Assembly (NCBI GenBank): GCA_951812955.1
Contig: OX638340.1
Coordinates: forward strand, 416,001 to 480,000
Length of the DNA: 64,000 nucleotides
Origin: an uncultured Gemmatimonadota bacterium
Lineage (GTDB): Bacteria; JAAXHH01
Reading direction: 5' to 3'
The notes below the pieces were generated by a model. It saw only the letters and a list, made by a program, of their open reading frames with translations. It was not told the origin of the DNA and made no database searches. A program made the translations under genes and the position numbers. Position 1 is the first letter of the stretch; each line of letters opens with the position of its first letter. Positions 1,561 to 44,286 of this stretch are shown here, one piece after another.

Positions 1561-3300
1561 CTATTCCTCTATCATCTCGTGGGACGCCGCCCCCGCGGGG
1601 ATCATGGGATACACGTTGTCTTCTTCGGCGATCACCAGATCGAGCATCACGGGACGGTCCTTGACCTTGCTGGCCTCGAGCCAGGCGCCTTCAACGTCTT
1701 CATCCTTGAAGACCCGAATTCCCACGGCGCCGTAGGCCTCCGCCAGCTTCACGAAATCCGGGTTGGACTCGCGCAGGTCAACCTCCGAGTAGCGCCGCGC
1801 ATAGAACATGTCCTGCCACTGCCGCACCATGCCGAGAAATCCGTTGTTCAGCAGCACGATCTTGATCGGCAGCCTGCAGGCCACGGCCGTGGCCATTTCC
1901 TGGATATTCATCTGTATGCTGCCGTCGCCGGAAAACACGATGACCTCGCGATCCGGGAAAGCGAACTGGGCGCCGATCGCGGCGGGCAGTCCGAATCCCA
2001 TCGTACCGAGTCCGCCGGAGGTGACCATCGATCGGGGATTCGAGAAGCCGTACCACTGGGCCGCCCACATCTGGTGCTGGCCGACGTCGGTGACCACGAA
2101 GGCTTCGCCCTTCGTAAGCTGGCCGATCCGCTCGATGGCATACTGTGCACACAGCGGCAGATGGTCCGTGCCCTTCTCGACCGTCTCCCGGTCAACGCCC
2201 TCCAGGCCTTCCTCGTGTACACCGATCGTGTTCGCGTAGGTCAGCGGGTGGTCGCGTTTCCATTCGTCGATCAGCTGGAGCCACTCTTCCGTATCTGCAC
2301 GTTCAACCAGGGGAACCAACTGCTGCAGCACGTTCTTCACGTCGCCCACGATGGGCAGGTCCACCCGCACGTTCTTGTTGAGAGACGACGGGTCGATGTC
2401 GATGTGGATTTTCTTTGAATTGGGAGAAAATTCTTCCAGATTGCCGGTCACCCGGTCGTCGAAACGCGCGCCGATGCAGACCAGCAGGTCGCACATCATG
2501 ACGGCGGTGTTCGCGTACCACGTGCCGTGCATGCCGAGCATCTTCAGCGAAAGCGGATCGTTTTCGGGGAATGCGCCGAGTCCCATCAGCGTAGTCGTCA
2601 CCGGGGCGTTGAGCTTGCGGGCCAGCGCACGGACTTCCTCCGACGCCTCGGAGATGATCGCTCCACCGCCAACGTAGATCACCGGTCTGCTGGCCGAGGT
2701 GAGCATCTCCGCTGCCTTGCGGATCTGCCTCGGATGTCCCTCGGTGCGGGGCTTGTACCCGCGTATATCCGGTCTTTCGGGGTATGCGAACTCGGCGGTC
2801 CCGACTTGCACGTCCTTCGGTACGTCGATCAGGACGGGGCCGGGCCTTCCCGTGGTCGCGATATGAAATGCCTCGGCGAATACCTGCGCGATGTCTTCAG
2901 TTTCCTTGATGAGGAAGTTATGCTTCGTGATCGGCCGGGTGATGCCCACGGTGTCCGATTCCTGGAAGGCATCGTTTCCGATCAGGTGCACCGGTACCTG
3001 GCCCGTGATCACGATCATCGGGATCGAATCCATGTACGCGGTCGCGATGCCGGTTACCGTATTGGTGGCGCCCGGACCCGAAGAGACGAGCACCACGCCG
3101 GGTTTGCCGGTGGCCCGCGCATATCCGTCGGCCATATGGGTCGCGCCCTGCTCGTGCCGGACGAGGATATGCTTGAGCTCGGTGGTGCGCTGAATTACGT
3201 CATAGGTCGGGATCACAACGCCGCCGGGATAACCGAAAACGACATCGACGCCTTCCTGCTTCAGACACTCTATGACTATTTCCGCACCCGACAATTCCAT
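1561..3300 (-). CDS. ilvB: Acetolactate synthase large (catalytic) subunit, ThDP-dependent
   Basis: The ORF track gives 1561..3333. The likely start is the internal ATG at 3300 ([13 protein letters not shown]...) with a GGAGA RBS. It has the ThDP/FAD-binding ALS signature (GYPGG...GPGATN...GDGS motif). Confidence 0.9.
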
Positions 3301-3404
3301 CGAACGTCTCCTTGTAAAACAGGCGTATTCCACCCCGGACGTGATCTACCGTTCACGAAACCGGCTGTGATTTCGTCGTGTAGATAACCCAACTTGTGCT
3401 TCGT

Positions 3405-3432
3405 AAAATATGCCGAAGACGCCTGTTGTCAA
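3405..3432 (-). promoter_or_regulatory. Candidate sigma70-type promoter for the ilvBNC operon
   Basis: On the minus strand: TTGACA, a 16-nt spacer, then TATTTT, about 100 nt upstream of the ilvB start. No leader peptide is evident. Confidence 0.35.
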
Positions 3433-3454
3433 GTTAAAACTCCAGATAAACCCC

Positions 3455-3483
3455 TTGACGAAACGTACCGTTTCCGTTATATG
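3455..3483 (+). promoter_or_regulatory. Candidate sigma70-type promoter for the TPR-protein gene
   Basis: TTGACG, a 17-nt spacer, then TATATG, about 130 nt upstream of ATG 3611. It shares a divergent region with the ilvB promoter. Confidence 0.35.
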
Positions 3484-3610
3484 TTCTAGGCTTTGCGCCA
3501 GCGGTCGGATCCGCTGTCCGTTCGGCGTTTAGCCAGCACGATACACAGCGGTTTAAGGCGGTTTCTAACCGGCGAATTACTCGACGAAACTTCGCAGGAG
3601 GTCCGGGTCG

Positions 3611-4282
3611 ATGGCAAGAACGAGACGGCGCATCAGCCGTCGTGAAATGAAGGAAGACCGATTCATTCTCTGGCTGTACGAGTTGAGCAGCGAGATCGAC
3701 AAGCACTGGAAAACGCTCACGGCGGCTGCCGTCGCTGTGGTCGTCTGCGTGGCCGGCTGGTATTACTGGACAAACAAGCAGACCGATGACATAGTCGAGG
3801 CGGGACGGATACTCGCGCCGGGGCAGACGGCGATGCAGAATAATCGCTATGAAGACGCCATTCCCATGTTCGAGCGGGTCGTGAACGAATTCGGCGGGAC
3901 CGCTCTTGCCCTCGAGGCCACGATCGAACTGGCCAACGCTTGTTTCCAAGCCGGCGACGTTGAGAAGGCACGCACCTACTATCAAAAATACCTCGACGAA
4001 TACGGCAGTCAGAACGCGTATTTCTGGATGGCCGCACGCTCCGGCCTGGCCGCCTGTGACGAAGAGGAAGAGAAGTACGAGGAAGCGGCCAACCAGTATC
4101 TCGCCCTGGTGGACGAAGATCCGGACAGCTATCTCGCCCCCGGTTTTCTCCTGGATGCCGCTCGATGTTTCAGCGCCGCTGAACAGAAGGACCAGGCAAG
4201 GGCCCTGTACGACCGTGTGGTTGATACCTACGAATCCACGCCTTACGCCCGGGAAGCCCGGATCGCGTTGACCGCGCTCTAA
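3611..4282 (+). CDS. Membrane-anchored tetratricopeptide-repeat protein (YfgM-like, uncharacterised)
   Basis: 223 aa. There is one N-terminal TM helix (TLTAAAVAVVVCVAGWYYW) followed by TPR-like helical repeats. A CAGGAGG RBS lies 8 nt upstream. Confidence 0.55.
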   Translation: MARTRRRISRREMKEDRFILWLYELSSEIDKHWKTLTAAAVAVVVCVAGWYYWTNKQTDDIVEAGRILAPGQTAMQNNRYEDAIPMFERVVNEFGGTALALEATIELANACFQAGDVEKARTYYQKYLDEYGSQNAYFWMAARSGLAACDEEEEKYEEAANQYLALVDEDPDSYLAPGFLLDAARCFSAAEQKDQARALYDRVVDTYESTPYAREARIALTAL

Positions 4283-7179: not shown

Positions 7180-8175
7180 TTAAGGTGCGGGCAGGTTGCT
7201 AAGCACGGTCCTCGCCCTGGTGCGGATATAGGCGTTTTCGTCGGAAACCATCCGGGCCCTTAGTACCCTTTCCAGGTCTTCGTCGATCGAGGTCGGCACC
7301 TGCTCCTGCAGCCGGTTGATCGCGTTGATTCTGAGGGCCGGATTCTCGTCGAAGACCAGTGTGTGGATCATGGCGTCTCTGATCCCCTCGTCAAAAGGAT
7401 ACCGGGAGAGGGCGTTGAACGCCTCGCCCCTGACCCCGGCATTCGAGTCCGTTTTCAAGGCGGTGACGAGGGCATCCTTGATCTCATGCTCCGAATGCAG
7501 GATTTCGGAATCGCTCACGGCGTTCACCGCCCGCAGCCGGACGCCGGGATTCTGTTCATTAAGTACGGCAAAGGTGAGTACACGTTGTATGCCGGGATCG
7601 TCGAGCGTTCCTCTGATCTGCACGGGCCGGACGGCTTCGAACTGGAATTCCAACATGCCATCGGGGGCGCCGGAATCCACGAACCGAACGTTTGAAATGG
7701 CCACGTCGTCATTGGTCAACAGGTCCGTCTGATCCATGCCCGGCGTCGCGAATCCAATGGAACGGTCTCCCTGGAAGGCCAGGTAGTAACCGGCAACCAG
7801 GCCGATGAACAACAGCAGTGCTCCCCCGAGGACGGAGCGGTAGGAAGGAAAGGTGTTTATCGTAACCCTTTGCAAGCCGTCTACTATGCGACCTGCCCAC
7901 CCGCTTGGGATGTGGAGACCCGGGCGGCCGAGTGTCACGTTGGACCAAAATCGGTTTCGAGCTTCATTCAGGTCTGCCGCACCAGGCCTGGCAGGGGCGG
8001 CTTCCCCCATGACCAGTCTGAATTCATCCAGACGGGCGCGGTACGCCCGGCATTGATCACATGATTCGAGATGGACGTCCAACCGCCGCTGATCTGCATC
8101 GGACAATTCACCGTATTGGGAGAGTTCCAGCCATTCTTCCCATTTCGTGTGAGACCGGCTCCTGTCTTCTTTCAT
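7180..8175 (-). CDS. Anti-sigma factor with an N-terminal zinc-finger (HxxxCxxC-type) and a C-terminal HEAT-repeat domain
   Basis: The ORF track gives 7180..8253. The likely start is ATG 8175 (MKEDRS...), overlapping the sigma stop as ATGA. Residues HLESCDQC resemble the zf-HC2 anti-sigma motif. There is a central TM segment (LLLFIGLVAGYYLAF) and HEAT-like repeats (ALRINAINRL, VRLRAVNAV). Confidence 0.65.
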   Translation of the reverse strand: MKEDRSRSHTKWEEWLELSQYGELSDADQRRLDVHLESCDQCRAYRARLDEFRLVMGEAAPARPGAADLNEARNRFWSNVTLGRPGLHIPSGWAGRIVDGLQRVTINTFPSYRSVLGGALLLFIGLVAGYYLAFQGDRSIGFATPGMDQTDLLTNDDVAISNVRFVDSGAPDGMLEFQFEAVRPVQIRGTLDDPGIQRVLTFAVLNEQNPGVRLRAVNAVSDSEILHSEHEIKDALVTALKTDSNAGVRGEAFNALSRYPFDEGIRDAMIHTLVFDENPALRINAINRLQEQVPTSIDEDLERVLRARMVSDENAYIRTRARTVLSNLPAP

Positions 8176-8831
8176 TTTCGTATGTCCTCGAGTTGACTGC
8201 GCAGTCTTCGGGTGGCATCGAAAAGGTATTTCTTTACCGTGCCTTCGGCACATTCCATGATTCCCGCTATCTCCCTCAGTTTGAATCCTTCGTGGTGGCG
8301 CAACACAAACACCGTTCGCAGACGGGGAGAAAGTGTACCGACGGCGGACCGGATCCGCGAAGCGATTTCGCTGTTGATGACTGCCGCGTCCGGCCGTTCG
8401 GGGGTAACGGGCGTAACACCGTAAGTGACCGTAGCCTGGTTTTCGTCGAACTTGTCTTCGATAGGGATGAACCGCCTGGTCCGGTTCCGCGACCGATGCG
8501 TGAGGCAGACATTGGTGACGATCCGGTACAGGTAGGTGGAAAACCGGCTGCGGAATTCGAAATCGGGCAGTGCCTTGAATACACGCATGAAGACTTCCTG
8601 GTATACATCCTTTGCGTCGTCCAGGTCGCCCACGAAGGACACGGCCATGGACAGCACTTTCTCGTCGTATCTGTATACGAGTTCTTCCAGGGCCCGCATG
8701 TCGCCTCCCCGGGCCTTGAGAATCAGCCTGCGCTCCTCCAGGTCCGTGCGATTTCCTGCCGAATCGTTATCCATGTGCTCTTCCCGATCATCCGGTGCGA
8801 TTCGGCCGTCGAGTTTACGGGCAGTTTCCAC
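8172..8831 (-). CDS. ECF-family RNA polymerase sigma-70 factor (sigma-24 type)
   Basis: The sigma-70 region 2 pattern (LEELVYRYDEKVLSMAVSFVGDLDDAKDVYQEVFMRVFKAL) and region 4 HTH (LSPRLRTVFVLRHHEGFKLREIAGIMECAEGTVKKYL) are present. The start may be GTG 8831 or ATG 8775. Confidence 0.85.
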   Translation of the reverse strand: METARKLDGRIAPDDREEHMDNDSAGNRTDLEERRLILKARGGDMRALEELVYRYDEKVLSMAVSFVGDLDDAKDVYQEVFMRVFKALPDFEFRSRFSTYLYRIVTNVCLTHRSRNRTRRFIPIEDKFDENQATVTYGVTPVTPERPDAAVINSEIASRIRSAVGTLSPRLRTVFVLRHHEGFKLREIAGIMECAEGTVKKYLFDATRRLRSQLEDIRK

Positions 8832-19040: not shown

Positions 19041-19382
19041 TCAGGTTCCGAAGGCTTCGATAGCGCCTTCCAACGTATCGTGGACGGCGAACACGGTGGT
19101 CAACTTCGTCATCTGGAGAAGGCTGCTGACGCTGCGTGTCACCCGCGCGAGCTTGAGGTCCCCGCCGACCTTTTGCATGCGGGTGTATGCGCGGATGAGG
19201 AGACCCAGGCCCGAACTGTCGATCCAGTGCACCTTGCTCAGATCGAAGATGATCTTCCTGGAGCCATTGTCGGCCAGTTTGTTGATACGCTCGCTCAGGG
19301 CGTCGGTGTCCCTTCCCTCGGCCATGCGGCCACTCAATTCCAGCACCGTGACGTCACCGTGCTTTAATTCTCTGACTTTCAC
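19041..19382 (-). CDS. STAS-domain protein (anti-sigma-factor antagonist), second copy
   Basis: 113 aa. It has the DSSGLGLL phospho-Ser motif. It lies 32 nt upstream of the methyltransferase on the same strand. Confidence 0.8.
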   Translation of the reverse strand: MKVRELKHGDVTVLELSGRMAEGRDTDALSERINKLADNGSRKIIFDLSKVHWIDSSGLGLLIRAYTRMQKVGGDLKLARVTRSVSSLLQMTKLTTVFAVHDTLEGAIEAFGT

Positions 19383-21063: not shown

Positions 21064-21194
21064 CGATTTCCTCCGATTACTAAGTTTGGTAAAACATGCC
21101 ATTCATCCGTAGGGATGCGCACGTCCAGACCAGAACGAATGCGCACATCACGTCCAGTACGGATGCTTCATCATGATCGGAACGGTTACGCACA

Positions 21195-22160
21195 TCACGT
21201 CCAGTTCGTGTACGGCGGAAGCGGCCAGTCCGCTTCCCGGCCGATGGCTAAAGCTCGCATCCGTTCGTCGGCGGTAAGGGGCGGTACGCAGTCCGCTCCG
21301 GCATTTTCCTCGAGCTGCGCGCGATTCTTCGCACCGGGTATCACCGAGGTCACGCCCGGGGTATCCAGCACGAACCGGAGCGCGGCCTGCACCATGGTGC
21401 GTTTACCTCCCGCAACCAGAAAAGACAGTTCCGACAGTTTTCTCAGCGCGGAATGGATTCGGGGATTGTCGAAACGCTCGTGCCGGCGGTCCTGCGTATC
21501 GAGCCGGGACAATGAATCGAAGTACTTGCCGGTCAGCGCGCCTTGCGCAAGGGGCACGCGAATTAGCGTACCCAGGTTTTCCTCTGCCGCGAACCGCAAT
21601 CCCGCATTTCCCACCGGATTGACGATGCTGTAGCCGATCTGCGCCATCGCGAGGTCGCCCAGCGCCATCAGGGACCGCATGACTTCCGTCTCGTACGTCG
21701 AGATGCCGAAACACCGGATCTTGCCTTCTTCGACCAGCCGCGTTAACGCCTCCACGATCGCAGGCATGTCGGCCTCGTCCGGCTCTCCGTGCAACTGGTA
21801 GACGTCGATGTATTCGGTCTGAAGCCGTTCCAGGCTTCCCTCGCAATTCCGTGCGATGTAACGCTGTATCGACTCGTCCGGATCGTCCGTCCTGGGGGCC
21901 ACCTTGGTTGCGATTACGTAGCGTTCGCGTCTGCCCCGGAGTGCTCGGCCGATGATCCGCTCGCTATGGCCGGCTCCATACCCGTTGGCCGTGTCCAGCA
22001 GGTTGATTCCAAGCGATTCCGCGTGCTGTATGGTGGCGATGGACTCATCGTCGTCGATGCCCGACCAGTTCGCTCCGCCGGCCATGCCGGCCATGGGCCA
22101 GCAGCCCAGGCCGATACACGACACCTCGATTCCCGTCTTTCCCAGAACTCGGTACTCCAA
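21195..22160 (-). CDS. Aldo/keto reductase
   Basis: 321 aa. The AKR signature (LGCW...DTANGYG...GHSE) and C-terminal NADP-binding motifs are present. Confidence 0.85.
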   Translation of the reverse strand: MEYRVLGKTGIEVSCIGLGCWPMAGMAGGANWSGIDDDESIATIQHAESLGINLLDTANGYGAGHSERIIGRALRGRRERYVIATKVAPRTDDPDESIQRYIARNCEGSLERLQTEYIDVYQLHGEPDEADMPAIVEALTRLVEEGKIRCFGISTYETEVMRSLMALGDLAMAQIGYSIVNPVGNAGLRFAAEENLGTLIRVPLAQGALTGKYFDSLSRLDTQDRRHERFDNPRIHSALRKLSELSFLVAGGKRTMVQAALRFVLDTPGVTSVIPGAKNRAQLEENAGADCVPPLTADERMRALAIGREADWPLPPYTNWT

Positions 22161-24811: not shown

Positions 24812-25768
24812 TCAATCGCGCAGCTCCGCCCGGATGCGGTCGGCCAGCCTCATCGTCTCCACAGCCTCCTCCAGCCCCGCCGCGGGCAGATCCACGGGCC
24901 GGTCCTCCTTGATGCAGTCGATGAGGAAGCGGGCCTGTTCGGCCGTTCCGGCGGATTCCACCGTGTCGAGCACTTCTTCTTTGCCGTCCCGCTGTACCAC
25001 TGCTCTCTTCACGCCTTCCAGGTAGGCCGAACAGTCCCTGCCGTGGATTTCATAGCGCTCCAGGCGGGCGTCCGTCGTGAAATTGGCTGTGAGCTGGGCC
25101 ACGCACCCATTTTCGAATCGTAAGAGCGCCGCGTAGACGTCGACATATCGAGAATGAGCCCTGCGGGCGACGGCATGGACTTCGGCGATGGGAGAACTGC
25201 CCGCCAGGGACCGGGTCAGGTCGATGGCGTGGATCGGCGTCTCGTAGATGAAGTTGTCCAGCAGATGGTCTGGGAAGGGCCGTTCACGCAGGCGCGTCAT
25301 GCTCTTGTGAAATTCCGCCACGATCTGGGTGACGGGTCCCCGCTCCTCGATCATGCCTCGGGCCTTGCAGATCAGGGAATGGAACCGGCGGTTCCAGCCG
25401 ACCAGCACCTTCGCTCCGGATGCGTTGGCGGCGTCGCGGAGCCCCTCGGCTTCCGCGCCCGACAGGCCGGGCGGCTTTTCAATGAGCGCGTGCACACCGG
25501 CCTGTATGACGGGCAGCGCGCATTGGCCGTTCAGGTGGGCCGGCGTCGCGACTACCGCCAGGTCCAGATCTTCCATCGACAGCATGTCCTCGATATCTTC
25601 GTATCGCCGCGGGACTGCGTTTTCCTCAGCCACCCGGTCGCGCAGTTCCTTCACCGGATCGCACACGGCCACGAACCGCAGGTCGTCGAAGGTCTTCATG
25701 GTCTCGAGATGACCGCGACCCCGCCCTCCGCATCCGATCAGGGCGGCTTTTAAGACTGTTTCCGGCAT
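24812..25768 (-). CDS. Gfo/Idh/MocA-family NAD(P)-dependent oxidoreductase
   Basis: An N-terminal Rossmann motif (KAALIGCGGRGRGH) and an EKP motif (LIEKPPGL) are present. The ATG at 25768 has a GGAG RBS. The track's TTG 25831 adds an atypical extension. Confidence 0.8.
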   Translation of the reverse strand: MPETVLKAALIGCGGRGRGHLETMKTFDDLRFVAVCDPVKELRDRVAEENAVPRRYEDIEDMLSMEDLDLAVVATPAHLNGQCALPVIQAGVHALIEKPPGLSGAEAEGLRDAANASGAKVLVGWNRRFHSLICKARGMIEERGPVTQIVAEFHKSMTRLRERPFPDHLLDNFIYETPIHAIDLTRSLAGSSPIAEVHAVARRAHSRYVDVYAALLRFENGCVAQLTANFTTDARLERYEIHGRDCSAYLEGVKRAVVQRDGKEEVLDTVESAGTAEQARFLIDCIKEDRPVDLPAAGLEEAVETMRLADRIRAELRD

Positions 25769-25847
25769 TTGGGTTGCTCCGGTTGCGGTGGTGAGCATCC
25801 TCTGCGAAGCGTATATTACTATAAGTTGCAATCACCACGGTATATTG

Positions 25848-25911
25848 CTTGACGCGTGCAATGCTAGACGCGTGCAATGATTGACGCATGCTTTGCTTGA
25901 CGCGTGCAATG
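25848..25911. promoter_or_regulatory. Four tandem 16-bp repeats (YTWGACGCRTGCWWTG), a candidate operator array in a divergent promoter
   Basis: cttgacgcgtgcaatg / ctagacgcgtgcaatg / attgacgcatgctttg / cttgacgcgtgcaatg are phased 16 bp apart. Each has a partial palindrome centred on ACGCGT. The array lies between the Gfo/Idh/MocA gene (minus) and the PhyH gene (plus). Confidence 0.5.
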
Positions 25912-25964
25912 TATCGCCATTTCTTCTGCAAGTAAACCCACCATTATCGAACGGTGATTCCTGC

Positions 25965-26702
25965 ATGCTGGATCTCGACTTTTTCAGGCAAAACGGATAC
26001 GTCAACCTCGGCCGGGTTTTCGTTGGCGAGGAATTGAACCGTTTTGTCGAACTGTACGACCAGGACCGGTCGAATCGGGGTTGCTTCTGGCATCCCATTT
26101 CCAATCACGGCCACCAGACCCTGAACTGCGAGCCCCTGATCTCCTCGCCGGAGATCGACGGACTGATCCGCCACCCCAAGTTAATCAAACCGATCGAGAC
26201 CATTTTCCAGGGCCCCAGCTGTCTCGGTGAAGTCTGCCTGCGCCACATGGTCCCGCGCGACGGCGAACCGGAGGAGATCTGGCACCGGGACCGGCCGCAT
26301 GCGAAGGACCGGCCCTACCGGTGCGGCTTCCTGCAGATGATGCTCTACCTGACCGACGTGCACGAGGGCACGCACTGCTTTTCAATCTCTCCCGAGCCCT
26401 GCGACGGTCCTGTGCTCGATACAAAAGAGCAGCTCGACCAGCGGGGCGCGGTCCATCTGCACGGACCGGCCGGTACCGTCATTCTCTTCAACCTTTCCGT
26501 GCTGCACGCCGCAACGGTTCGGATCACCCCGCACGAACGCAAGACCGTCCAGATCTACTACGGCCATCGCGATGGTCCTGTGCTGAGCGACTGTACTTTG
26601 ATTCCCACTAGTTTCTGGCGGGACCATCCCGACCCCGAGGTGCGGGGTTTCTACGGCCTGATGACCAGCCGTTCCAGGCAATATGCCGAGGCCTTTGGCT
26701 GA
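25965..26702 (+). CDS. Phytanoyl-CoA dioxygenase (PhyH) family Fe(II)/2-oxoglutarate oxygenase
   Basis: The WHRD...H facial-triad-like arrangement and PhyH-like length are present. The track's start at 25881 would overlap the repeat array, so ATG 25965 is preferred. Confidence 0.65.
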   Translation: MLDLDFFRQNGYVNLGRVFVGEELNRFVELYDQDRSNRGCFWHPISNHGHQTLNCEPLISSPEIDGLIRHPKLIKPIETIFQGPSCLGEVCLRHMVPRDGEPEEIWHRDRPHAKDRPYRCGFLQMMLYLTDVHEGTHCFSISPEPCDGPVLDTKEQLDQRGAVHLHGPAGTVILFNLSVLHAATVRITPHERKTVQIYYGHRDGPVLSDCTLIPTSFWRDHPDPEVRGFYGLMTSRSRQYAEAFG

Positions 26703-26777
26703 GTCATGGGTAGAATCAATGGCCAGGATGGGACCGTCTGTTGAGGTTGGTACAAACTGGCACAAATTGGAGAGCGA

Positions 26778-27833
26778 ATGTCGAATAAACGTCCTCAGGT
26801 ACTCATCGCATGCAGCGAACGCGTCCGAAATGGATACATGCCGCCAAAGGAACTGGCCCGTCTCGAGGAGTTTGCCGATTGGACATGGTTCCACTGCGAG
26901 GGCGGCGGGATCTACGATACCAGTTCGGATCCCGAGACCACGGTGCAACTGGCGAAGGAAATGGCCGGGGTGGACGCGCTCGTCGTCTGCCACGGCGCGC
27001 CGAGGGTTGGCGCCGAAGTCCTGGATGCCGCGCCGCGGCTCCGTTTTGTCGGCGAACTGGAAGGAGACCGTTTCGCCGCGCGGCTTGACCTGGAATCGAT
27101 GTGGTCCCGTGGCATCAGCACGATAGATACGACCAACGGCTCCACCTATCCGGTAGCGGAATGGGCCCTGGGGCTGACGCTGATCTCCATGCGCAATGCC
27201 GGGGCACTCTTTCGTAGGATCATCGAACGCAATACGCAGGATCGTGATCTCATTCAGCCCATGGCGGGCATCCTTACCGGCAAAAGAGTGGGATTGATCG
27301 GCGGCGGGCACATGGGACGGCGGCTGATGAAGCTGCTACGACCCTTCGATGTGGAATTGTGGGTCCATGATCCGTACCTGCCGCAGGAATTGCCCGAAGC
27401 GCTGGGATTCCTGCAGACCTCGCTGGACAATGTGCTTTCCAAGTGCAACGCGATCATCTGCGTGGCGCCCCTCACGCCGAAGACCCAGGGCATGATCGGG
27501 CAGCGCGAACTGGACCTCATCCCTTCTGGCTCGGTGTTCGTGAATGTTTCGCGGGGGCCGATCGTCGACTCGGCAGCCCTGATCGAGCGCCTCAAGCGCA
27601 ATGATATCGCCGCGGGGCTGGACGTTTTCGATCCGGAGCCCATCCCCGAAGACAGCGAAATCATCGGCCTGCCCAATGTTTTCCTGACACCCCACTTCTC
27701 CGGACGCACGGGTGAAGAATACCCCCACTTCTTCGGCTTCATGGTCGATGAACTGGAACGGTTCTTCTCCGGTCACGAGACCTGGTTCAACCTGACGCCG
27801 CGATCGAAAGCCAACCGCGAGGGACAATCGTGA
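26778..27833 (+). CDS. D-isomer-specific 2-hydroxyacid dehydrogenase family protein (NAD-binding)
   Basis: The GLIGGGHMGRR Rossmann motif is present. The catalytic region has the conserved R, E/D, H arrangement (VNVSRGPIVD...HFSG). Confidence 0.8.
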   Translation: MSNKRPQVLIACSERVRNGYMPPKELARLEEFADWTWFHCEGGGIYDTSSDPETTVQLAKEMAGVDALVVCHGAPRVGAEVLDAAPRLRFVGELEGDRFAARLDLESMWSRGISTIDTTNGSTYPVAEWALGLTLISMRNAGALFRRIIERNTQDRDLIQPMAGILTGKRVGLIGGGHMGRRLMKLLRPFDVELWVHDPYLPQELPEALGFLQTSLDNVLSKCNAIICVAPLTPKTQGMIGQRELDLIPSGSVFVNVSRGPIVDSAALIERLKRNDIAAGLDVFDPEPIPEDSEIIGLPNVFLTPHFSGRTGEEYPHFFGFMVDELERFFSGHETWFNLTPRSKANREGQS

Positions 27834-29269
27834 CACGACCCAATCTGCTCTACATTTTCACTGACCAGCAGCGTGCCGACACGCTGGCCTGCTACGGCAA
27901 TCACCAGATTGAAACCCCTGCGCTCAACAGACTGGCCGAGGACAGTTTCGTCTTCGAAAACGCCTACGTGAGCCAGCCCGTATGCAGTCCGGCCCGGGCA
28001 ACCATGCTTACCGGCCTCTGGCCCCACACGGCGGGCGTCCCGTCCTGCAACGTACCGCTGGCCTGCGACAAGCCGACCATCGCCGAGATGCTTCCGGCGG
28101 AATACGATACGGCCTTCATGGGGAAGTGGCACCTGGGAGACGAGATCTTCCCCCAGCACGGCTTTAAGACCTGGGTGGGTACGGAAGACCAATATCGAAG
28201 CGGATACTCGGAAACGGATCGGTTGGCCGAAGTCAGCGACTATCATCACTTCCTCGTGGATAAGGGGCACACGCCCGACATCGAGCTGCTGGGACAAAGG
28301 GTTTTTTCGAGACACTATGCGGCGTCCCTGCCCGAGGAATCCACCAAGGCATGGTACCTGGGCGAACGGGCGGCCGACTACATCAATAATCAGGGCGACG
28401 ACCCCTTCACCCTGTGCGTCAGCTACCTGGAACCCCATCCTCCGCACACCGGTCCGTTGAACGACTTCTACAACCCGGACAGCCTGCCGACCGGGCCGGC
28501 CTTCATGCGGCAGCCACCCTTCGACGCACCGCTTCTCGTCCGTTTGATGGCGGCCTTCTACATGCAGTCGGAGAACTACGGACTGGATCTGCGGACCGAG
28601 GCGGGCTGGCGGGCCTTGATGGCACGGTACTGGGGCAACGTTACCCTGGTGGACCGTTCGGTGGGGAGGATTTTGAAAGCCCTCGAAGAAAGCGGCAAGG
28701 CCGATGACACCATCGTCGTGTTCACTTCGGACCACGGAGAGTTGATGGGCGATCATGGCATCCTAGGCAAGACGCTCATGTACGAGGAGTCCATCAAGGT
28801 GCCGATGTTGCTGCGCGCGCCCATGCTGGATCACGAATCGCGACAAATCGGCGGCCGGTTCAGCCATATCGACCTCGTGCCCACCCTGATGGAGTTATTG
28901 GGCCTCGAGCGACCGGACAGGTTGCAAGGTCGAAGCCGCGTGCCCGTGCTGCAGGGGCACGAGAACCTGGATAATGATGATGTGTTCGTCGAGTGGAGCG
29001 GAGAGGACGGCCATGCGCGGGCCGGACTTGGGGAAGCCGAACCGAACCAGAGCATGGTGCATCAGAACCGGACGATCGTGACCGCGGAGGGATGGAAACT
29101 CAACCTGTACGGAAAAGGGCAGGGAGAGCTGTACGATTTGAACAACGATCCCTGTGAATTGGTGAACCTGTTTCATCGGGGTGAGCAGGCGGGACGGATC
29201 GGAGATCTGACGCAGCGGATTCGGGCGTGGCAGGAGGAGACTGGGGATGGGGTGGAGTTGGGGGTATAG
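27830..29269 (+). CDS. Sulfatase (formylglycine-dependent, arylsulfatase family)
   Basis: The CSPARATMLTG motif (C-x-P-x-R) is present, and the N-terminal LLYIFTDQQRAD is typical of sulfatases. The GTG start overlaps the upstream stop (GTGA). Confidence 0.85.
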   Translation: MTRPNLLYIFTDQQRADTLACYGNHQIETPALNRLAEDSFVFENAYVSQPVCSPARATMLTGLWPHTAGVPSCNVPLACDKPTIAEMLPAEYDTAFMGKWHLGDEIFPQHGFKTWVGTEDQYRSGYSETDRLAEVSDYHHFLVDKGHTPDIELLGQRVFSRHYAASLPEESTKAWYLGERAADYINNQGDDPFTLCVSYLEPHPPHTGPLNDFYNPDSLPTGPAFMRQPPFDAPLLVRLMAAFYMQSENYGLDLRTEAGWRALMARYWGNVTLVDRSVGRILKALEESGKADDTIVVFTSDHGELMGDHGILGKTLMYEESIKVPMLLRAPMLDHESRQIGGRFSHIDLVPTLMELLGLERPDRLQGRSRVPVLQGHENLDNDDVFVEWSGEDGHARAGLGEAEPNQSMVHQNRTIVTAEGWKLNLYGKGQGELYDLNNDPCELVNLFHRGEQAGRIGDLTQRIRAWQEETGDGVELGV

Positions 29270-29346
29270 CGATACTAGCGTCAATCTCATCTCAGTAAGC
29301 ACACTCACTGAAAGATGATCCGGAACGATACAAGGAAATCCAGAAC

Positions 29347-30153
29347 ATGGCCATGACCGACGAAGAACGCTTCCGATTCGACTTGACCGGATTTTTAGTG
29401 CGCCCGGCCATTCTCACGGCGGACGAAGTAAAAGAAATCCGAGAGCAGATCTACCTGATCAAGCACGATCCGGAGTCGCTCCCGCCCGAACATCGAGACG
29501 TCCCCGGTGGACCGTCGAGCATTCTAATCGATCATCCCGCTGTCATCGACGTCATCTCGGAGATCATCAGTCCCGATTTTCGGCTGGAGAACTGCAGTTG
29601 TGTCTGGCGCAATAAGGGGGAAGAACACGGGGAACTTCACGGCGGGGGTCCCAACCAGATCGATCCCATTTTTGGCTACCGCGTGCAGCGGGAACGCATC
29701 TATGCTGGTATGGTCCGGGTGATTTTCGAGTTTACGGATATAAAAATGGAGGACCAGAGCACGCACTTCGTGGTAGGCAGCCACAAGGCCAACTTCCCCA
29801 TGCATCCAGATCACAAGTCGTTGGAGCCTGGGAAACGGAGTGATTTCCTGATGACTTATGCCTGTCCCGCAGGCAGCGCTGTGTTCTTCACCGAGAACCT
29901 GTGTCACGCCGGCCCCAAGTGGAACCGGGACGAGCCCAGGGTTACCGTCCTCAACGCCTATTCCCACCTGGCCACCCACTGGCACCGGTTGAAAACTCCG
30001 CCAGAGGTCATTGCTGGGCTGCCTCGCGAGAAGCAGGTCTACTTCCGCGAAACGTGGATCGCCGATTTTCGATCGAATCCTGCCACGATCAATACAGCGG
30101 AACGCTTCCTGGGCAACGACGAACCGCCCATAGACTCGGATAACGAACCCTAG
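29347..30153 (+). CDS. Phytanoyl-CoA dioxygenase (PhyH) family protein, second copy
   Basis: 268 aa with a PhyH-like HxD...H arrangement (HGGGP...H). Confidence 0.7.
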   Translation: MAMTDEERFRFDLTGFLVRPAILTADEVKEIREQIYLIKHDPESLPPEHRDVPGGPSSILIDHPAVIDVISEIISPDFRLENCSCVWRNKGEEHGELHGGGPNQIDPIFGYRVQRERIYAGMVRVIFEFTDIKMEDQSTHFVVGSHKANFPMHPDHKSLEPGKRSDFLMTYACPAGSAVFFTENLCHAGPKWNRDEPRVTVLNAYSHLATHWHRLKTPPEVIAGLPREKQVYFRETWIADFRSNPATINTAERFLGNDEPPIDSDNEP

Positions 30154-38657: not shown

Positions 38658-39662
38658 CTATCGATCCAGAGCTACGCGTTCAACGTGCCAGCACCGTGCG
38701 CGGTGCCCTTCTGTAATTTCCTCTAACATTGGTTCCGTGGTGCACTGCTCCGTGGCGTACCGGCAACGAGGCGCGAATGCGCAGCCCTTCGGCAAGTTGA
38801 GCGGCGAGGGAACCGTACCCGGTATCGTAGACAGCATGGATGCCCTTTCTCGATTTATCCGCGGCGCCGAATCGAGCAGTCCCCTGGTATACGGATGGGC
38901 AGGATGGTAGAAGATCCTTTCGGGCGAGCCGGTTTCGACCACCTGCCCAGCGTACATGATCATGATTTCGTCGGCCATGTCGGCGATCACCCCCAGGTCG
39001 TGTGTGATCATCAGGATGGCCATATTATGGCTTTTCTGGAGTTCTCTCAGCAGGTCGAGGATCTGGGCCTGGATCGTCACGTCCAGCGCCGTGGTGGGCT
39101 CGTCGGCGATCAGCAGTTCGGGACCGCACGACAGGGCCATGGCGATCATGGCGCGCTGCCGCATGCCGCCGGACAATTCGTGGGGGTACTCATCCACCCG
39201 CTGCCGCGCACCGGGTATGCCGACCTCGGAAAGGGCCTGCACCGCGCGGGAACGGGCATGCTCCCGGTCCATGCCGTGGTGCAGGCGGAGGGCTTCGCCT
39301 ATCTGGTTCCCCACGGTGTATACCGGGTTGAGGGCGGTCATGGGTTCCTGGAAGATCATGGCGATTTTTCGGCCCCGGATTCTCCGCATTTCATCGCCAT
39401 TCTGCTCGAGATCGTGAATCCCGATGCCTGAACCGCCTTCCCGATCGTGAAGAACGATCTCTCCTTCCACGTAACCCGGTCTGGGAACCAGGCGCATCAG
39501 GGACAGCCCCATCATGCTCTTGCCGCAGCCGCTTTCACCGACCACACCGAGTGTTCTGCCTCGCCTGATCTGAAACGAAACGTCGCGCACGGCCCGGACG
39601 GGACCGTCGTCTGTGGGGATTATGGCGGACAGGTGCGATATATCGAGAAGGAGGTCGTGCAT
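38658..39662 (-). CDS. Peptide ABC transporter ATP-binding protein (DppD/OppD type)
   Basis: Walker A (GESGCGKS), signature LSGGMRQRAMIAMAL and Walker B are present. Confidence 0.85.
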   Translation of the reverse strand: MHDLLLDISHLSAIIPTDDGPVRAVRDVSFQIRRGRTLGVVGESGCGKSMMGLSLMRLVPRPGYVEGEIVLHDREGGSGIGIHDLEQNGDEMRRIRGRKIAMIFQEPMTALNPVYTVGNQIGEALRLHHGMDREHARSRAVQALSEVGIPGARQRVDEYPHELSGGMRQRAMIAMALSCGPELLIADEPTTALDVTIQAQILDLLRELQKSHNMAILMITHDLGVIADMADEIMIMYAGQVVETGSPERIFYHPAHPYTRGLLDSAPRINRERASMLSTIPGTVPSPLNLPKGCAFAPRCRYATEQCTTEPMLEEITEGHRARCWHVERVALDR

Positions 39663-39828
39663 ACAAGTTCATTGTAACGCCCTGTTCGAAGGGATGTCAA
39701 GGTGTACGGACGGTGGAGGCAGTGTAATTTTGAAGAAACCGGGGCGCTGGTTTGTAAGACTTAAAACTGTATTCTCTCATTCAACCCAAACGGATCTACC
39801 AGGTCTGGATTTATTCAAGGAGTCGAAT

Positions 39829-41079
39829 ATGCATGTGTCAGAAACAGCCCGGAATGCCTGGACACGTCGAGGATTCATGAAGGGCGCGCTCGCCGCCGGA
39901 ACGGCCGGTGTCGCACTGTCCATGTCAGACAGGATTGCGATGGCCACGCAGTTGATCACGGGCGGAAAGCCCACAATCGAAGCCATCCGGGGCGTAGGCG
40001 TCCAGCCTGGTCTCGTTCGCATGAGCCTGAATGAGAATCCGCTGGGACCGTCGCCGCGGGCCATCGAAGCCATGGCGAACCGGTTGTTCGGCGTCAACCG
40101 CTATGGTACGGACCTGAGCGATCTGATGCAGGCCCTGTCGACCTTCGACGGGGTGGAACTGCCCGAGCCGGACAATTCAAGGCGGCGCTCGTTTTTCCGT
40201 CCGCCTCCCGGCCCATTCATGCTGACCCCGGGATCCAGTCTTATCCTCGACCTGCTGTGCCTGGCCTATCTCAGCCGCGACGGCGGCGAAGTCATCGAAG
40301 CGGAGTATGGCTACGGGTCCGTTTCCCGATCCGCCAGTGGTTTCAATGATATGTTCGGCGTCGACGTCAACATCATCCGGGCGCCGATGACACAGGAATA
40401 CAAGCACGACCTGGACGGGATGGCTTCCCTGGCATCCGAAAAGACCTCTCTGGTGGTCATCACCAATCCGAACAATCCCACGGGCACGTTGCTGCAGCCC
40501 GATGAAATCGAAGCTTTCGTCAAAAAGGTCCCTTCTTCGGCCATCGTGGTCATCGACGAGGCCTATCTGCACTTCGCGGAGCAGGACCCGATTCCCTCGG
40601 CCATCCCGCTCGCCGTCAAGTACGACAACGTGGTCGTGGTGAGAACCTTCTCCAAGGCCTACGCGCTCGCCGCTGTGAGACTGGGTTACTGTGTTGCCTC
40701 GCAAAAGGTCCAGGACGAATTGCGGAAGTACTACCAGGAATCTCCGAATGCCCTGGCCAGCGTGGCCGGCGCCGCAGCTGTGCGCGATCTCGAGCATCTT
40801 CAGAAGTCCAGAGAAGCCGTATGGGACTTCAAAAAGCGCTGTTACGCAGCCTTCGACGAGATGGGGATCGAGTACCTGCCGTCCCAGGGTACCTTCGTGA
40901 TGGCCGACCTGAAGCGGTCGGCGATGCAGGTAGTCAGGGAAATGCGGACACGTAACGTCTGGATAAGTTCCCGACGCCAGCAGGAATTTAGAAACTGGAT
41001 CAGGGTTTCCGCCGGTACCGAAGCGGAAACCGAGGTATTCATCCAGACCCTCAAGGACGTGCTGGCCAAGTCCAGCTAA
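39829..41079 (+). CDS. PLP-dependent class I/II aminotransferase (histidinol-phosphate aminotransferase-like) carrying an N-terminal twin-arginine (Tat) signal peptide
   Basis: ATG 39829 has an AAGGAG RBS. The N-terminus TRRGFMKGALAAGTAGVALSMSDRIAMA is a textbook S/T-RRxFLK Tat motif plus h-region plus AxA site. The mature domain has the class-I aminotransferase pattern with the conserved Lys in TFSKAYALA. Confidence 0.75.
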   Translation: MHVSETARNAWTRRGFMKGALAAGTAGVALSMSDRIAMATQLITGGKPTIEAIRGVGVQPGLVRMSLNENPLGPSPRAIEAMANRLFGVNRYGTDLSDLMQALSTFDGVELPEPDNSRRRSFFRPPPGPFMLTPGSSLILDLLCLAYLSRDGGEVIEAEYGYGSVSRSASGFNDMFGVDVNIIRAPMTQEYKHDLDGMASLASEKTSLVVITNPNNPTGTLLQPDEIEAFVKKVPSSAIVVIDEAYLHFAEQDPIPSAIPLAVKYDNVVVVRTFSKAYALAAVRLGYCVASQKVQDELRKYYQESPNALASVAGAAAVRDLEHLQKSREAVWDFKKRCYAAFDEMGIEYLPSQGTFVMADLKRSAMQVVREMRTRNVWISSRRQQEFRNWIRVSAGTEAETEVFIQTLKDVLAKSS

Positions 41080-42039: not shown

Positions 42040-44286
42040 TCAACTCCCCTTCGACTCTACTGTTTTATCGATCTCGGGGGCCGTTCCTACCGGCTCCTCG
42101 TCCGATCCGTCCTCCGATGGGACTCCGTTACCATCCACTGAAGGCGCATCAGATGTCGATGCTTCAGTGTTCGACGCAGTGTTCGACGCTTCCGGCTTTT
42201 CCGTGCCAGGTTCCGGGGATTGCACTGATTCTGCAGCCTGCCCAGACTCCGAGGCCTTGGCAGACTCTTCGGTCTCGGCGGTCTGCCCAGACTCCGCGGC
42301 CTGCTCAGCCTCAGCGGCCTTCGCAGTCTCCGCGGCCTTCGCAGCCTCCTCAGCCTCGGCGGCAAGTCTTTCGCGCTCCTGTTCCATCGCCTCGAATTTG
42401 TCCTTCCCATATATGAGCTTTGCTACTTCATCCCTTATGAGCGTATCGTGCTCCAGCAGGGCCTTGGCCACGAGATGAAGCTGGGGTTCGTAGTCCCTGA
42501 GCAGTTTCTCCACCCGGTCTCCGGCTTCGGACACGAACCGCTGGATCTCCTGGTCGATCCGGTGGGCGGTTGTTTCGCTGTAGTTCGGCTGGTGGGCGAT
42601 ATCCCGGCCCAGGAAGACCTCGTGCTCCTTCTCGCCCAGGGCCGTGGCCCCAATTTCCTCGCTCATCCCCCAGTCGCATACCATGTGGCGGCTGATCCGG
42701 GTGACCTGTTCGATATCGCTTTGCGCGCCGGAGGTGACTTCCCCGAAGACGATCTGCTCGGCCGCGCGGCCTCCCAGTGCCGCGGCCATCGTGCCCAGGC
42801 AGTACGAGCGGGACTGCAGGTAGCGCTCCTCCGGCAGGGAAATAGTCACGCCCAAACCGCGGCCCTGCGGCAGGATCGTCACCTTGTGCAGTGGGTCGAT
42901 TTCTTCGATGAGTTCGAAGGCGAGGGCATGGCCGGCCTCGTGGTAGGCCACGACTTTCCGCTCCTTGTCGCTGATCACGAGATGCCGCTTCGCGCCCATC
43001 ATCATCTTCTCTTTCGCCTCTTCGAAATCCTCGTTCGTCACGGAGGTGTGGTCGTACCGCGCGGCAATCAGGGCGGCTTCGTTCACCATGTTAGCCAGGT
43101 CCGCCCCGACCATCCCAGGCACGCCCTTGGCCAGCACGTCGAGCTTGACCGAGTCGTCGAGCGGGATTTTGCGGCTCTTCACATGTATCTCAAGGATCTT
43201 TTCCCGACCCACCACATCGGGCCGGTCGACGACGATATGGCGGTCGAAGCGGCCGGGACGGAGCAGGGCGGGGTCGAGCACGTCCGGCCGGTTGGTTGCG
43301 CCGATCACGATGATGGAATCCGTCTTTTCGAAGCCGTCCAGCCCCACCAGCAACTGGTTCAGGGTTTGTTCCCGCTCGTCGTGCCCGCCGCCGAGGCCGG
43401 CGCCGCGGTGACGGCCGATGGCGTCGATTTCATCGATGAAGATGATACACGGGGCGTTCTGGCGGGCCTGGTCGAAGAGATCGCGCACGCGGGAGGCGCC
43501 GACCCCGACAAACATCTCGACGAAGTCTGATCCGCTCATGCTGAAGAAGGGCACGCCCGCCTCGCCTGCCACGGCCTTGGCCAGCAGGGTCTTGCCGGTA
43601 CCCGGGGGGCCCAGCAGCAGTGCGCCTTTCGGTATGCGGCCGCCCAGGGCGTGGAACTTGTCCGGATTCTTCAGAAATTCCACGATTTCCTGCAGGTCGC
43701 GCTTGGCTTCGAGCACCCCCGCCACGTCGGCGAAGGTGATGGAGGGCCGATCTTCGACGATCATCTTGGCCCGGCTCTTGCCAAAGGAGAACATGCCGCG
43801 CTGTCCCGACTGCATCTGTCGCAGAATGAAAATCCAGAACCCGATCAACAACAGCCAGGGCAGGGCGGCGATGAGGTAGCCGACCCAGTTGGTGGCCTCC
43901 GGCTCGGCCGTCACCATGACGTTCCTGGCCATGAGATCGGCTACGAGATCCGGATCGTCAAAGGGGATGTATACCTTGAAGTCACGCAGGCTCTGGTTCG
44001 TGCCCTCGATCATCGTCGATGAATCCTGACGGAGCCGGCCGGTTATCAATTTCTCGGTGATGGTGACCTGCTCGATATTGTCGGCTTCGAGAAACTGCTG
44101 GAACTGCGTGTAGGAAACCGTAATCGAGCTATCGCCCCGCTGGGGAAGGAACTGCGCGGCCATCAGGAAGAAAAGGAAGAGCACGAGCCAGATAAGGATT
44201 GAGCGGTTCTTCTTCGACTTGTCCGGCTGTGGCTGTCGTTCGTTTCGGGGCGGGGGCTGTTGCCGTTCGTTGTGCGGTTGGGACAT
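42040..44286 (-). CDS. ftsH: ATP-dependent zinc metalloprotease FtsH with a low-complexity C-terminal extension of about 110 aa rich in Ala/Glu
   Basis: Two N-terminal TM helices are present. The AAA+ module has Walker A GPPGTGKT, Walker B IIFIDEID and the SRH. The HEAGH zinc site is present. The tail [38 protein letters not shown] is encoded by tandemly repeated GC-rich DNA at about 42160-42370. Confidence 0.9.

Follow-up and report, generated by a model that had tools for sequence, protein, structure and literature searches.

The question raised by this locus is whether a short array of direct repeats, located between two divergently transcribed genes, is a multi-site operator, as proposed in a preliminary description, or a structure of another kind. 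The two genes, both assigned by Pfam, encode a Gfo/Idh/MocA oxidoreductase (24812-25768, minus strand, with its ATG at 25768 and not at 25769) and a PhyH protein (25965-26702, plus strand). All positions are those of the window, i.e., the whole 64-kb stretch of DNA that was analyzed. Since positions 25769-25964 are exactly the region between the two genes, the repeats do lie in a divergent promoter region, as had been stated.

The array consists of four 16-bp units arranged head-to-tail at 25848-25911 and read on the plus strand. The distal unit 1 (25848-25863, cttgacgcgtgcaatg) is identical to unit 4 (25896-25911, cttgacgcgtgcaatg) at 16 of 16 positions, and between them lie unit 2 (25864-25879, ctagacgcgtgcaatg), also distal, and unit 3 (25880-25895, attgacgcatgctttg). 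A TTGAC motif had been attributed to every unit; it is present in units 1, 3 and 4, while unit 2 reads TAGAC. Likewise, ACGCGT is found in units 1, 2 and 4, and unit 3 carries an ancestral-looking ACGCAT and a TTTG junction, the latter as found upstream of the single copy of the orthologs. The four phased 16-bp repeats themselves are confirmed by the sequence, by a repeat search that gave start-to-start spacings of 16, 16 and 16, and by Tandem Repeats Finder (TRF), which reported positions 25846-25911 with a period of 16, 4.1 copies, 80% matches and a score of 97. In 40 dinucleotide-preserving shuffles of the window, the TRF score reached a maximum of 79 (median, approximately 48); therefore, the array is not a product of chance. 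Nor is it an assembly artefact, because a homologous array is present in three independent assemblies (L001, L002 and L081). A period of 16 bp corresponds to 1.5 helical turns, which places adjacent units on opposite faces of the helix.

To place the array in its evolutionary context, we used an ortholog scan with one genome per species, which returned 80 loci. The close relatives are L001-L019, L024 and L026, with protein identities of 83-98%, and in 20 of these 21 loci the Gfo/Idh/MocA gene (hereafter Gfo) adjoins PhyH as its divergent partner. The records of the closest relatives, which are metagenome-assembled genomes (MAGs), are labeled Latescibacterota, Gemmatimonadota/Gemmatimonadetes or simply 'bacterium', and several of the isolate names look to us like those of sponge-microbiome bins. 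In 18 orthologous Gfo-PhyH intergenic regions, the motif occurs at one constant place, at the left end of a conserved 42-bp block, and 14 of these 18 regions hold a single copy in this register, which is the ancestral state. Unit 4 is the only copy of the window in the conserved register, and unit 1 has no counterpart in these 14 regions.

The conserved core block (25896-25937, CTTGACGCGTGCAATGTATCGCCATTTCTTCTGCAAGTAAAC) has the consensus CTTGACG-nnn-GCAATGTATGGTCATTTCTT-y-TGCA-w-GTAAAC across orthologs, and its right end lies approximately 25-30 nt ahead of the PhyH ATG. Its mean pairwise identity is 92.6%, as compared with 69.0% at the third codon positions of PhyH in the same genomes, while the intergenic DNA outside the block cannot be aligned among orthologs. 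The block of the window is identical to those of L001 and L002 at 42 and 41 of 42 positions, respectively, and to those of more distant orthologs at 35-39 of 42. In L026, only 99 bp separate the two start codons, and nearly all of this sequence is the block; therefore, both promoters must lie within it, and the block can be read as a compact bidirectional promoter. The three bases that follow TTGACG vary across 19 orthologs (CGT, CAT, CTT, CTG, CTA, ATG and GTT). The partial palindrome centered on ACGCGT, described earlier as part of each site, loses its symmetry wherever CAT, CTT, CTG, CTA, ATG or GTT takes that place, and because these bases vary freely, we consider the palindrome to be an accident of the lineage of the window.

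The promoter signals of the window provide a reference for reading this block. The pattern TTGACA-N16-18-TAnnnT has an 11-fold higher density in intergenic DNA than within genes, and examples are located upstream of an ABC operon, a penicillin-amidase gene and an acetolactate-synthase-like gene; near-consensus intergenic matches, all on the minus strand, are found at 39700-39671, 24794-24766, 19805-19777, 9754-9726 and 3432-3405. Based on this enrichment, the organism appears to read canonical sigma-70 signals, which adds evidence that the lineage uses TTGACA/TAnnnT promoters. On the minus strand of the block, TTTACT (25931-25936), whose alignment columns are invariant, is a candidate -35 element of the Gfo promoter, and TACATT (25908-25913), at 17 nt from it and overlapping the GCAAT of unit 4, is a candidate -10 element. 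This pair, TTTACT (or TTTACA)-N17-TACATT, matches the consensus at 8-9 of 12 positions, and it was the top sigma-70-like pair in an unbiased scan of the Gfo-PhyH region that covered the window and five orthologs with the standard (type-A) block, all of which gave the same top pair. From these hexamers, the Gfo transcript is predicted to start inside unit 4, so units 3 to 1 would lie in its 5′ UTR.

On the plus strand, TTGACG (25897-25902), a match to the house -35 hexamer TTGACA at 5 of 6 positions, is a candidate -35 element for the PhyH operon. TTGAC is present in 20 of the 22 aligned sequences, and in the variant block of L024 the exact register of TTGACG is occupied by TTGACA-N16-TATTAT (11 of 12 positions), which makes TTGACG the likely PhyH -35 element. 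The suggestion that the TTGAC hexamer of each unit could serve as a -35 element is therefore upheld, as a consensus-like candidate in the L024 register, for the proximal unit only. TTTCTT (25920-25925), 17 nt after TTGACG on the same strand, is a poor -10 candidate, without A at its second position. A rival plus-strand promoter, GTGATT-N18-TATGGT (7-8 of 12 positions), is found in the orthologs only; within the 22-sequence alignment, TATGGT has become TATCGC in the window, L001 and L002 alone. In the orthologs, TATGGT and TACATT overlap by two bases on opposite strands, and at 7 bp from each -10 element to the start, the divergent starts are predicted approximately 23 bp apart, around AATGTATGGT. 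A stricter promoter scan of the intergenic region found no promoter. Promoters of the sigma-54 and ECF types, sought by eye, were rejected, the required bases not being conserved across orthologs. An alternative PhyH start at the upstream TTG at 25881 was also discarded, given that the 16- and 32-nt indels of the relatives would break the frame, while the ATG at 25965 is conserved. Between the block and this ATG, in the presumed PhyH 5′ UTR, an imperfect hairpin (CCACCATTATCGAACGGTGA, 25938-25957, plus strand) overlaps the GGTGA just before the ATG and is kept in the closer orthologs only.

Comparison of the array-bearing genomes indicated how the repeat has changed over a short time. The 16-bp array is confined to the window and the three loci closest to it, L001, L002 and L081, whose proteins are 94-98% identical; the window has four units, while the other three have six, with degenerate internal ones. 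Aligned to these three loci, the window shows a clean gap at unit 3 of exactly two units (32 nt). Among the array-bearing genomes, the two distal units differ at 3-8 positions per 32 nt and the Gfo-side intergenic DNA at 8-16 positions per 79 nt, whereas the proximal unit, the rest of the block and the 5′ UTR together differ at 0-1 positions per 69 nt; for L001 and L002, the differences are 8 of 32 in the distal units and 1 of 69 in the proximal part. The distal units thus change no more slowly than intergenic DNA that is free of constraint. The junctions are also informative: the TTTG at the end of unit 3 recalls the ancestral flank (GGTGATTTG followed across the junction by CTTGACGC), while units 1 and 2 end in AATG, which would suggest several duplication events in differing registers, some of them involving two units at once.

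Additional duplications were observed elsewhere. An independent 21-bp tandem duplication is present in the corresponding neighborhood of L011. In the window, the strongest tandem repeat (820-945; 44 bp, 2.9 copies, 92% matches, TRF score 224) and a weaker one (21113-21204; 24 bp, 3.9 copies, 65% matches) are also intergenic, and on the basis of these three arrays tandem duplication would be a common type of mutation in this genome. The final codons (…ITADLA) of the minus-strand ORF 924-1484, an ORF that by eye resembles the small subunit of acetolactate synthase, recur as their reverse complement in each 44-bp unit of the first array; the 3′ end of this gene, together with the spacer to the next minus-strand gene, has therefore been tandemly duplicated. 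The second array occupies a promoter-type position, between an aldo/keto reductase gene, with its 3′ end at 21195, and a lipoprotein-like ORF on the minus strand that starts at 21102. In the orthologous Gfo-PhyH regions, extra TTGACGC-like boxes occur 17 times in the same orientation, whereas the opposite strand has 2 and shuffles give 2.6; they are found in 10 of 18 orthologs, at 16, 21 or approximately 29 bp, and in 8 of 18 there is none. These extra boxes are duplication products.

These data bear directly on the operator reading, for which binding of the IclR/GntR/LacI-like kind had been suggested and according to which a predicted factor would recognize TTGACG-N3-GCAAT or TTGACGC and bind the four direct repeats cooperatively, either activating or repressing the divergent genes. 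Conservation of the block extends past the four promoter hexamers (e.g., GC at columns 11-12 and TGCA at columns 32-35), which hints at a further bound factor. Likewise, the PhyH side combines a good -35 with a poor -10 element, a combination common among activator-dependent promoters; unit 1 matches unit 4 at every position, and same-orientation boxes recur in more than half of the orthologs. A dyad within the block, CWTGCA-N18-TGCAWG, points in the same direction, with 85% of its cells paired as compared with 13-48% when it is slid along the alignment; nevertheless, its covariation is not significant, being reached by 94 of 500 shuffles. Against the operator, the palindrome is not conserved, and the absence of extra boxes in 8 of 18 orthologs indicates that one box suffices. 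The spacings of 16, 21 and 29 bp are mutually inconsistent, and 16 bp amounts to one and a half helical turns. Additionally, the drift of the distal units equals or exceeds that of the intergenic background, and the copy number differs between near-identical genomes. The four sites on which a multi-site operator would depend are therefore not conserved, 14 of 18 orthologs having one copy and the array clade four or six, and we regard this reading as unlikely. In correcting the operator call, the orthologs reveal selection on one site, not four, and an accidental palindrome.

A search for a regulon and for a regulator gave the same picture. In the 64-kb window, allowing three mismatches, the repeat 15-mer (TTGACGNNNGCAAT) gave two extra matches (46980 and 56339), which were rejected: each falls within an ORF, and the total does not exceed what shuffles lead one to expect. 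A profile of the 42-bp block, run over 734 kb (the 64-kb window plus 670 kb of loci; 81 loci), recovered the orthologous sites and one duplicate in L017 only, and when metagenomes were scanned with a degenerate 27-base pattern of the block, one contig only was hit, an ortholog resembling L002. The motif is therefore conserved in the orthologous regions, as one site, and within the window, the loci and the metagenome scan it was found at no site beyond them. Exact-protein look-ups of PhyH and Gfo in a contig collection gave no match. A domain scan of 20 large ORFs located between 14891 and 41079 detected no DNA-binding regulator domain, which agrees with the earlier remark that no regulator gene is adjacent. 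A candidate MocR-type regulator (39613-41079) was rejected, as it matches the aminotransferase domain only and its long N-terminus overlaps the neighboring gene. The only regulator-type genes that we noticed in the window are a minus-strand ORF encoding an anti-sigma-like protein with zf-HC2 and HEAT repeats (7180-8253), which the upstream ORF 8172-8831 overlaps, and a small minus-strand ORF (19041-19382) that by eye is STAS-like, i.e., similar to anti-sigma antagonists.

Direct-repeat operators of the AraC/XylS and OmpR/PhoB types, as well as plasmid iterons, are phased at approximately 10-11 or 21-22 bp, are conserved from one orthologous promoter to another, and are accompanied by the cognate regulator or Rep gene. 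The array of the window resembles them in having direct repeats beside or over a -35 hexamer, but it differs in its 16-bp period, in extra copies that are not conserved, and in the lack of any such gene nearby. Plasmid iterons were dismissed given that no initiator gene or origin lies beside the repeats and that the neighbors are catabolic, in a chromosome-like context; iterons, CRISPR and mobile-element repeats in general were likewise set aside, with no other copies and no matching neighbors.

A different function for the extra units would be that of new tandem promoters. In this reading, each TTGACG, 18 nt upstream of the TGCAAT of the next unit, would create additional PhyH promoters that compensate for the lost ancestral TATGGT -10 element. 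The arrangement TTGACG-N18-TGCAAT does occur from unit 1 to unit 2 and from unit 3 to unit 4, and within the 22-sequence alignment the change from TATGGT to TATCGC is restricted to the window, L001 and L002, all of which bear the array. Nevertheless, TGCAAT has G in place of the near-universal A of the -10 element, all five other house promoters having TA at positions 1-2, so the extra units form no complete house-style promoters. With a promoter scan that finds nothing in the region, and with internal units that are degenerate in L001 and L002, such promoters appear highly improbable.

Least probable of all, and hardly to be expected, is an element acting at the RNA level: transcribed within the 5′ UTR of Gfo or as a small RNA, the repeats would exert their effect via RNA structure or via a protein that binds them. 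Provided that the minus-strand promoter is real, the Gfo leader would indeed include units 3 to 1. However, Rfam yielded no match to 25400-26300 at E ≤ 1, and the predicted folds are no better than those of shuffled sequences, both for the putative Gfo leader RNA (z = -0.42) and for the array as DNA (z = -1.67), for which reason a structured RNA or a cruciform was dropped. The orthologs moreover do without the extra units, and their leader length ranges from approximately 35 to approximately 165 nt.

The reading that we favor, and consider probable, is that of a promoter-proximal variable tandem repeat whose source is one of the two ends of a compact bidirectional promoter, and whose extra units are at most modulators. 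Duplication of 16 bp at the Gfo-proximal edge of the 42-bp core promoter, by slipped-strand pairing or unequal exchange, would have produced a young array whose conserved functional element is the PhyH-proximal unit (25896-25911) alone. On the plus strand, this unit would provide TTGACG as the likely -35 element of the PhyH operon; on the minus strand, it would contribute part of the TACATT -10 element and the start region of TTTACT-N17-TACATT, firing towards Gfo/Idh/MocA. Units 1-3 would be lineage-specific extras, individually unconstrained, which leave the PhyH promoter with orphan boxes that resemble a -35 element, near -51, -67 and -83, and give the Gfo promoter a 5′ UTR longer by approximately 48 nt. 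They are most probably either neutral or a coarse tuning knob acting through spacing, decoy boxes or UTR length. Both the hexamers actually used and the effect of the units on expression are what we infer from the DNA sequence.

A counterpoint to neutrality is that the identity of units 1 and 4, together with the enrichment of extra boxes, could reflect selection for the boxes. The TTGACGC box has been amplified as 16-bp units in the window clade, as a 21-bp duplication in L011 and as an older copy at approximately 29 bp in several lineages. If this lineage-independent amplification were due to selection, a predicted factor, or the sigma subunit itself, would dock on the boxes, and the number of units would act as an evolvable dial that balances transcription one way against the other at a shared bidirectional promoter whose directions are mutually exclusive, a proposal that we judge to be quite unlikely.

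The bidirectional promoter with a variable repeat at its edge, as favored here, can be compared with two known kinds of system. [quoted passage not shown] The array of the window shares with these a head-to-tail arrangement in a promoter region, beyond chance (97 vs. 79), and whole-unit copy differences between close relatives (4 vs. 6 units, 32 nt); its units lie between promoter and start codon on the Gfo side and upstream of the -35 element on the PhyH side. By analogy, the array would be a further example of a known feature, i.e., variable tandem repeats in promoter regions. It differs from the hmw1A/hmw2A repeats (7 bp, 13-24 copies) in unit length and number, which are 16 bp and 4-6 copies in the window clade, and in that its unit itself forms part of the core promoter. 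Furthermore, those repeats belong to a pathogen and serve in rapid, reversible switching, whereas the window comes from an uncultured symbiont whose repeat is described here at the sequence level.

The second comparison is with the pseudo-symmetrical bidirectional sigma-70 promoters described by Warman, Grainger and colleagues, in which 18 bp is the most frequent distance between the divergent starts and distances of 10 and 23 bp are common as well (PMC12825309). Similarly, one very short block would serve two divergent genes here, and in the orthologs the -10 elements TACATT and TATGGT overlap, with a predicted distance of 23 bp between starts. Unlike these promoters, the window has a degenerate plus-strand TATGGT (TATCGC), and reading TTGACG as the -35 element leads to a face-to-face, overlapping arrangement. 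If the extra units do tune the balance of the divergent genes, the locus would be an instance from nature of a promoter that evolves as one of its core elements is tandemly duplicated.

Downstream of the block lies a plus-strand row of genes (25965-30153) whose products, according to Pfam, are in order PhyH, 2-hydroxyacid dehydrogenase, sulfatase and another PhyH protein, and in L081 a row of ORFs with matching lengths and order (approximately 245, 351 and 489 aa) follows the block. Beyond 30153 lie convergent ManD-like, PhyH, SDR and peptide-type ABC transporter genes. In four loci with upstream insertions (L005, L012, L017 and L024), the block has remained with PhyH, and since it stays attached to PhyH when the upstream neighbor changes, it plausibly heads the PhyH operon. 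The earlier statement that the array heads a catabolic block is therefore plausible for the PhyH/2-hydroxyacid dehydrogenase/sulfatase/PhyH operon, with regard to the proximal unit only. The useful product of the analysis is a precisely bounded 42-bp regulatory block of a PhyH/sulfatase catabolic operon, which belongs to a lineage that MAGs alone have made known.

The insertions themselves are of several kinds. In L005, Gfo is replaced by a large ORF (5-2458) that by eye we take to be type I restriction-modification-like, a methylase/specificity fusion; the breakpoint falls inside the block (3945-3978), where TTGACG was lost and columns 14-42 were kept, and a separate TTGACA-N16-TTACTT is found approximately 55 nt further upstream. 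In two lineages, a small ORF has entered the space that separates Gfo from the promoter block (L024, 2884-3240; L012, approximately 3500-3860, minus strand), and its translation (…GVYVIW…YVGQG…) is presumably GIY-YIG-like. In L017, the ORF between Gfo and PhyH (2365-3600) presumably encodes, judging by its translation, an IS256-like transposase, and copies of a variant (type B) block flank the insertion at 1582-1625 and 3936-3979, one beside each gene.

Other short sequences were observed near the block. In L003, L004, L006 and L008, a palindrome GCGAT-N-ATCGC (e.g., GCGATCATCGC and GCGATAATCGC) is located approximately 25-45 nt upstream of the block, between the upstream GACGC box and a conserved GGTGA; it is absent in the window clade, L015, L016, L018, L019 and L026. 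L010 has short intergenic tandem repeats of its own at approximately 3830-3880, with about three gcaacaatcgct-like copies unrelated to the 16-bp unit. Finally, the 18-, 36- and 9-bp repeats at 42274-42357 of the window lie within an FtsH-like gene (42040-44286) and therefore constitute a coding repeat.
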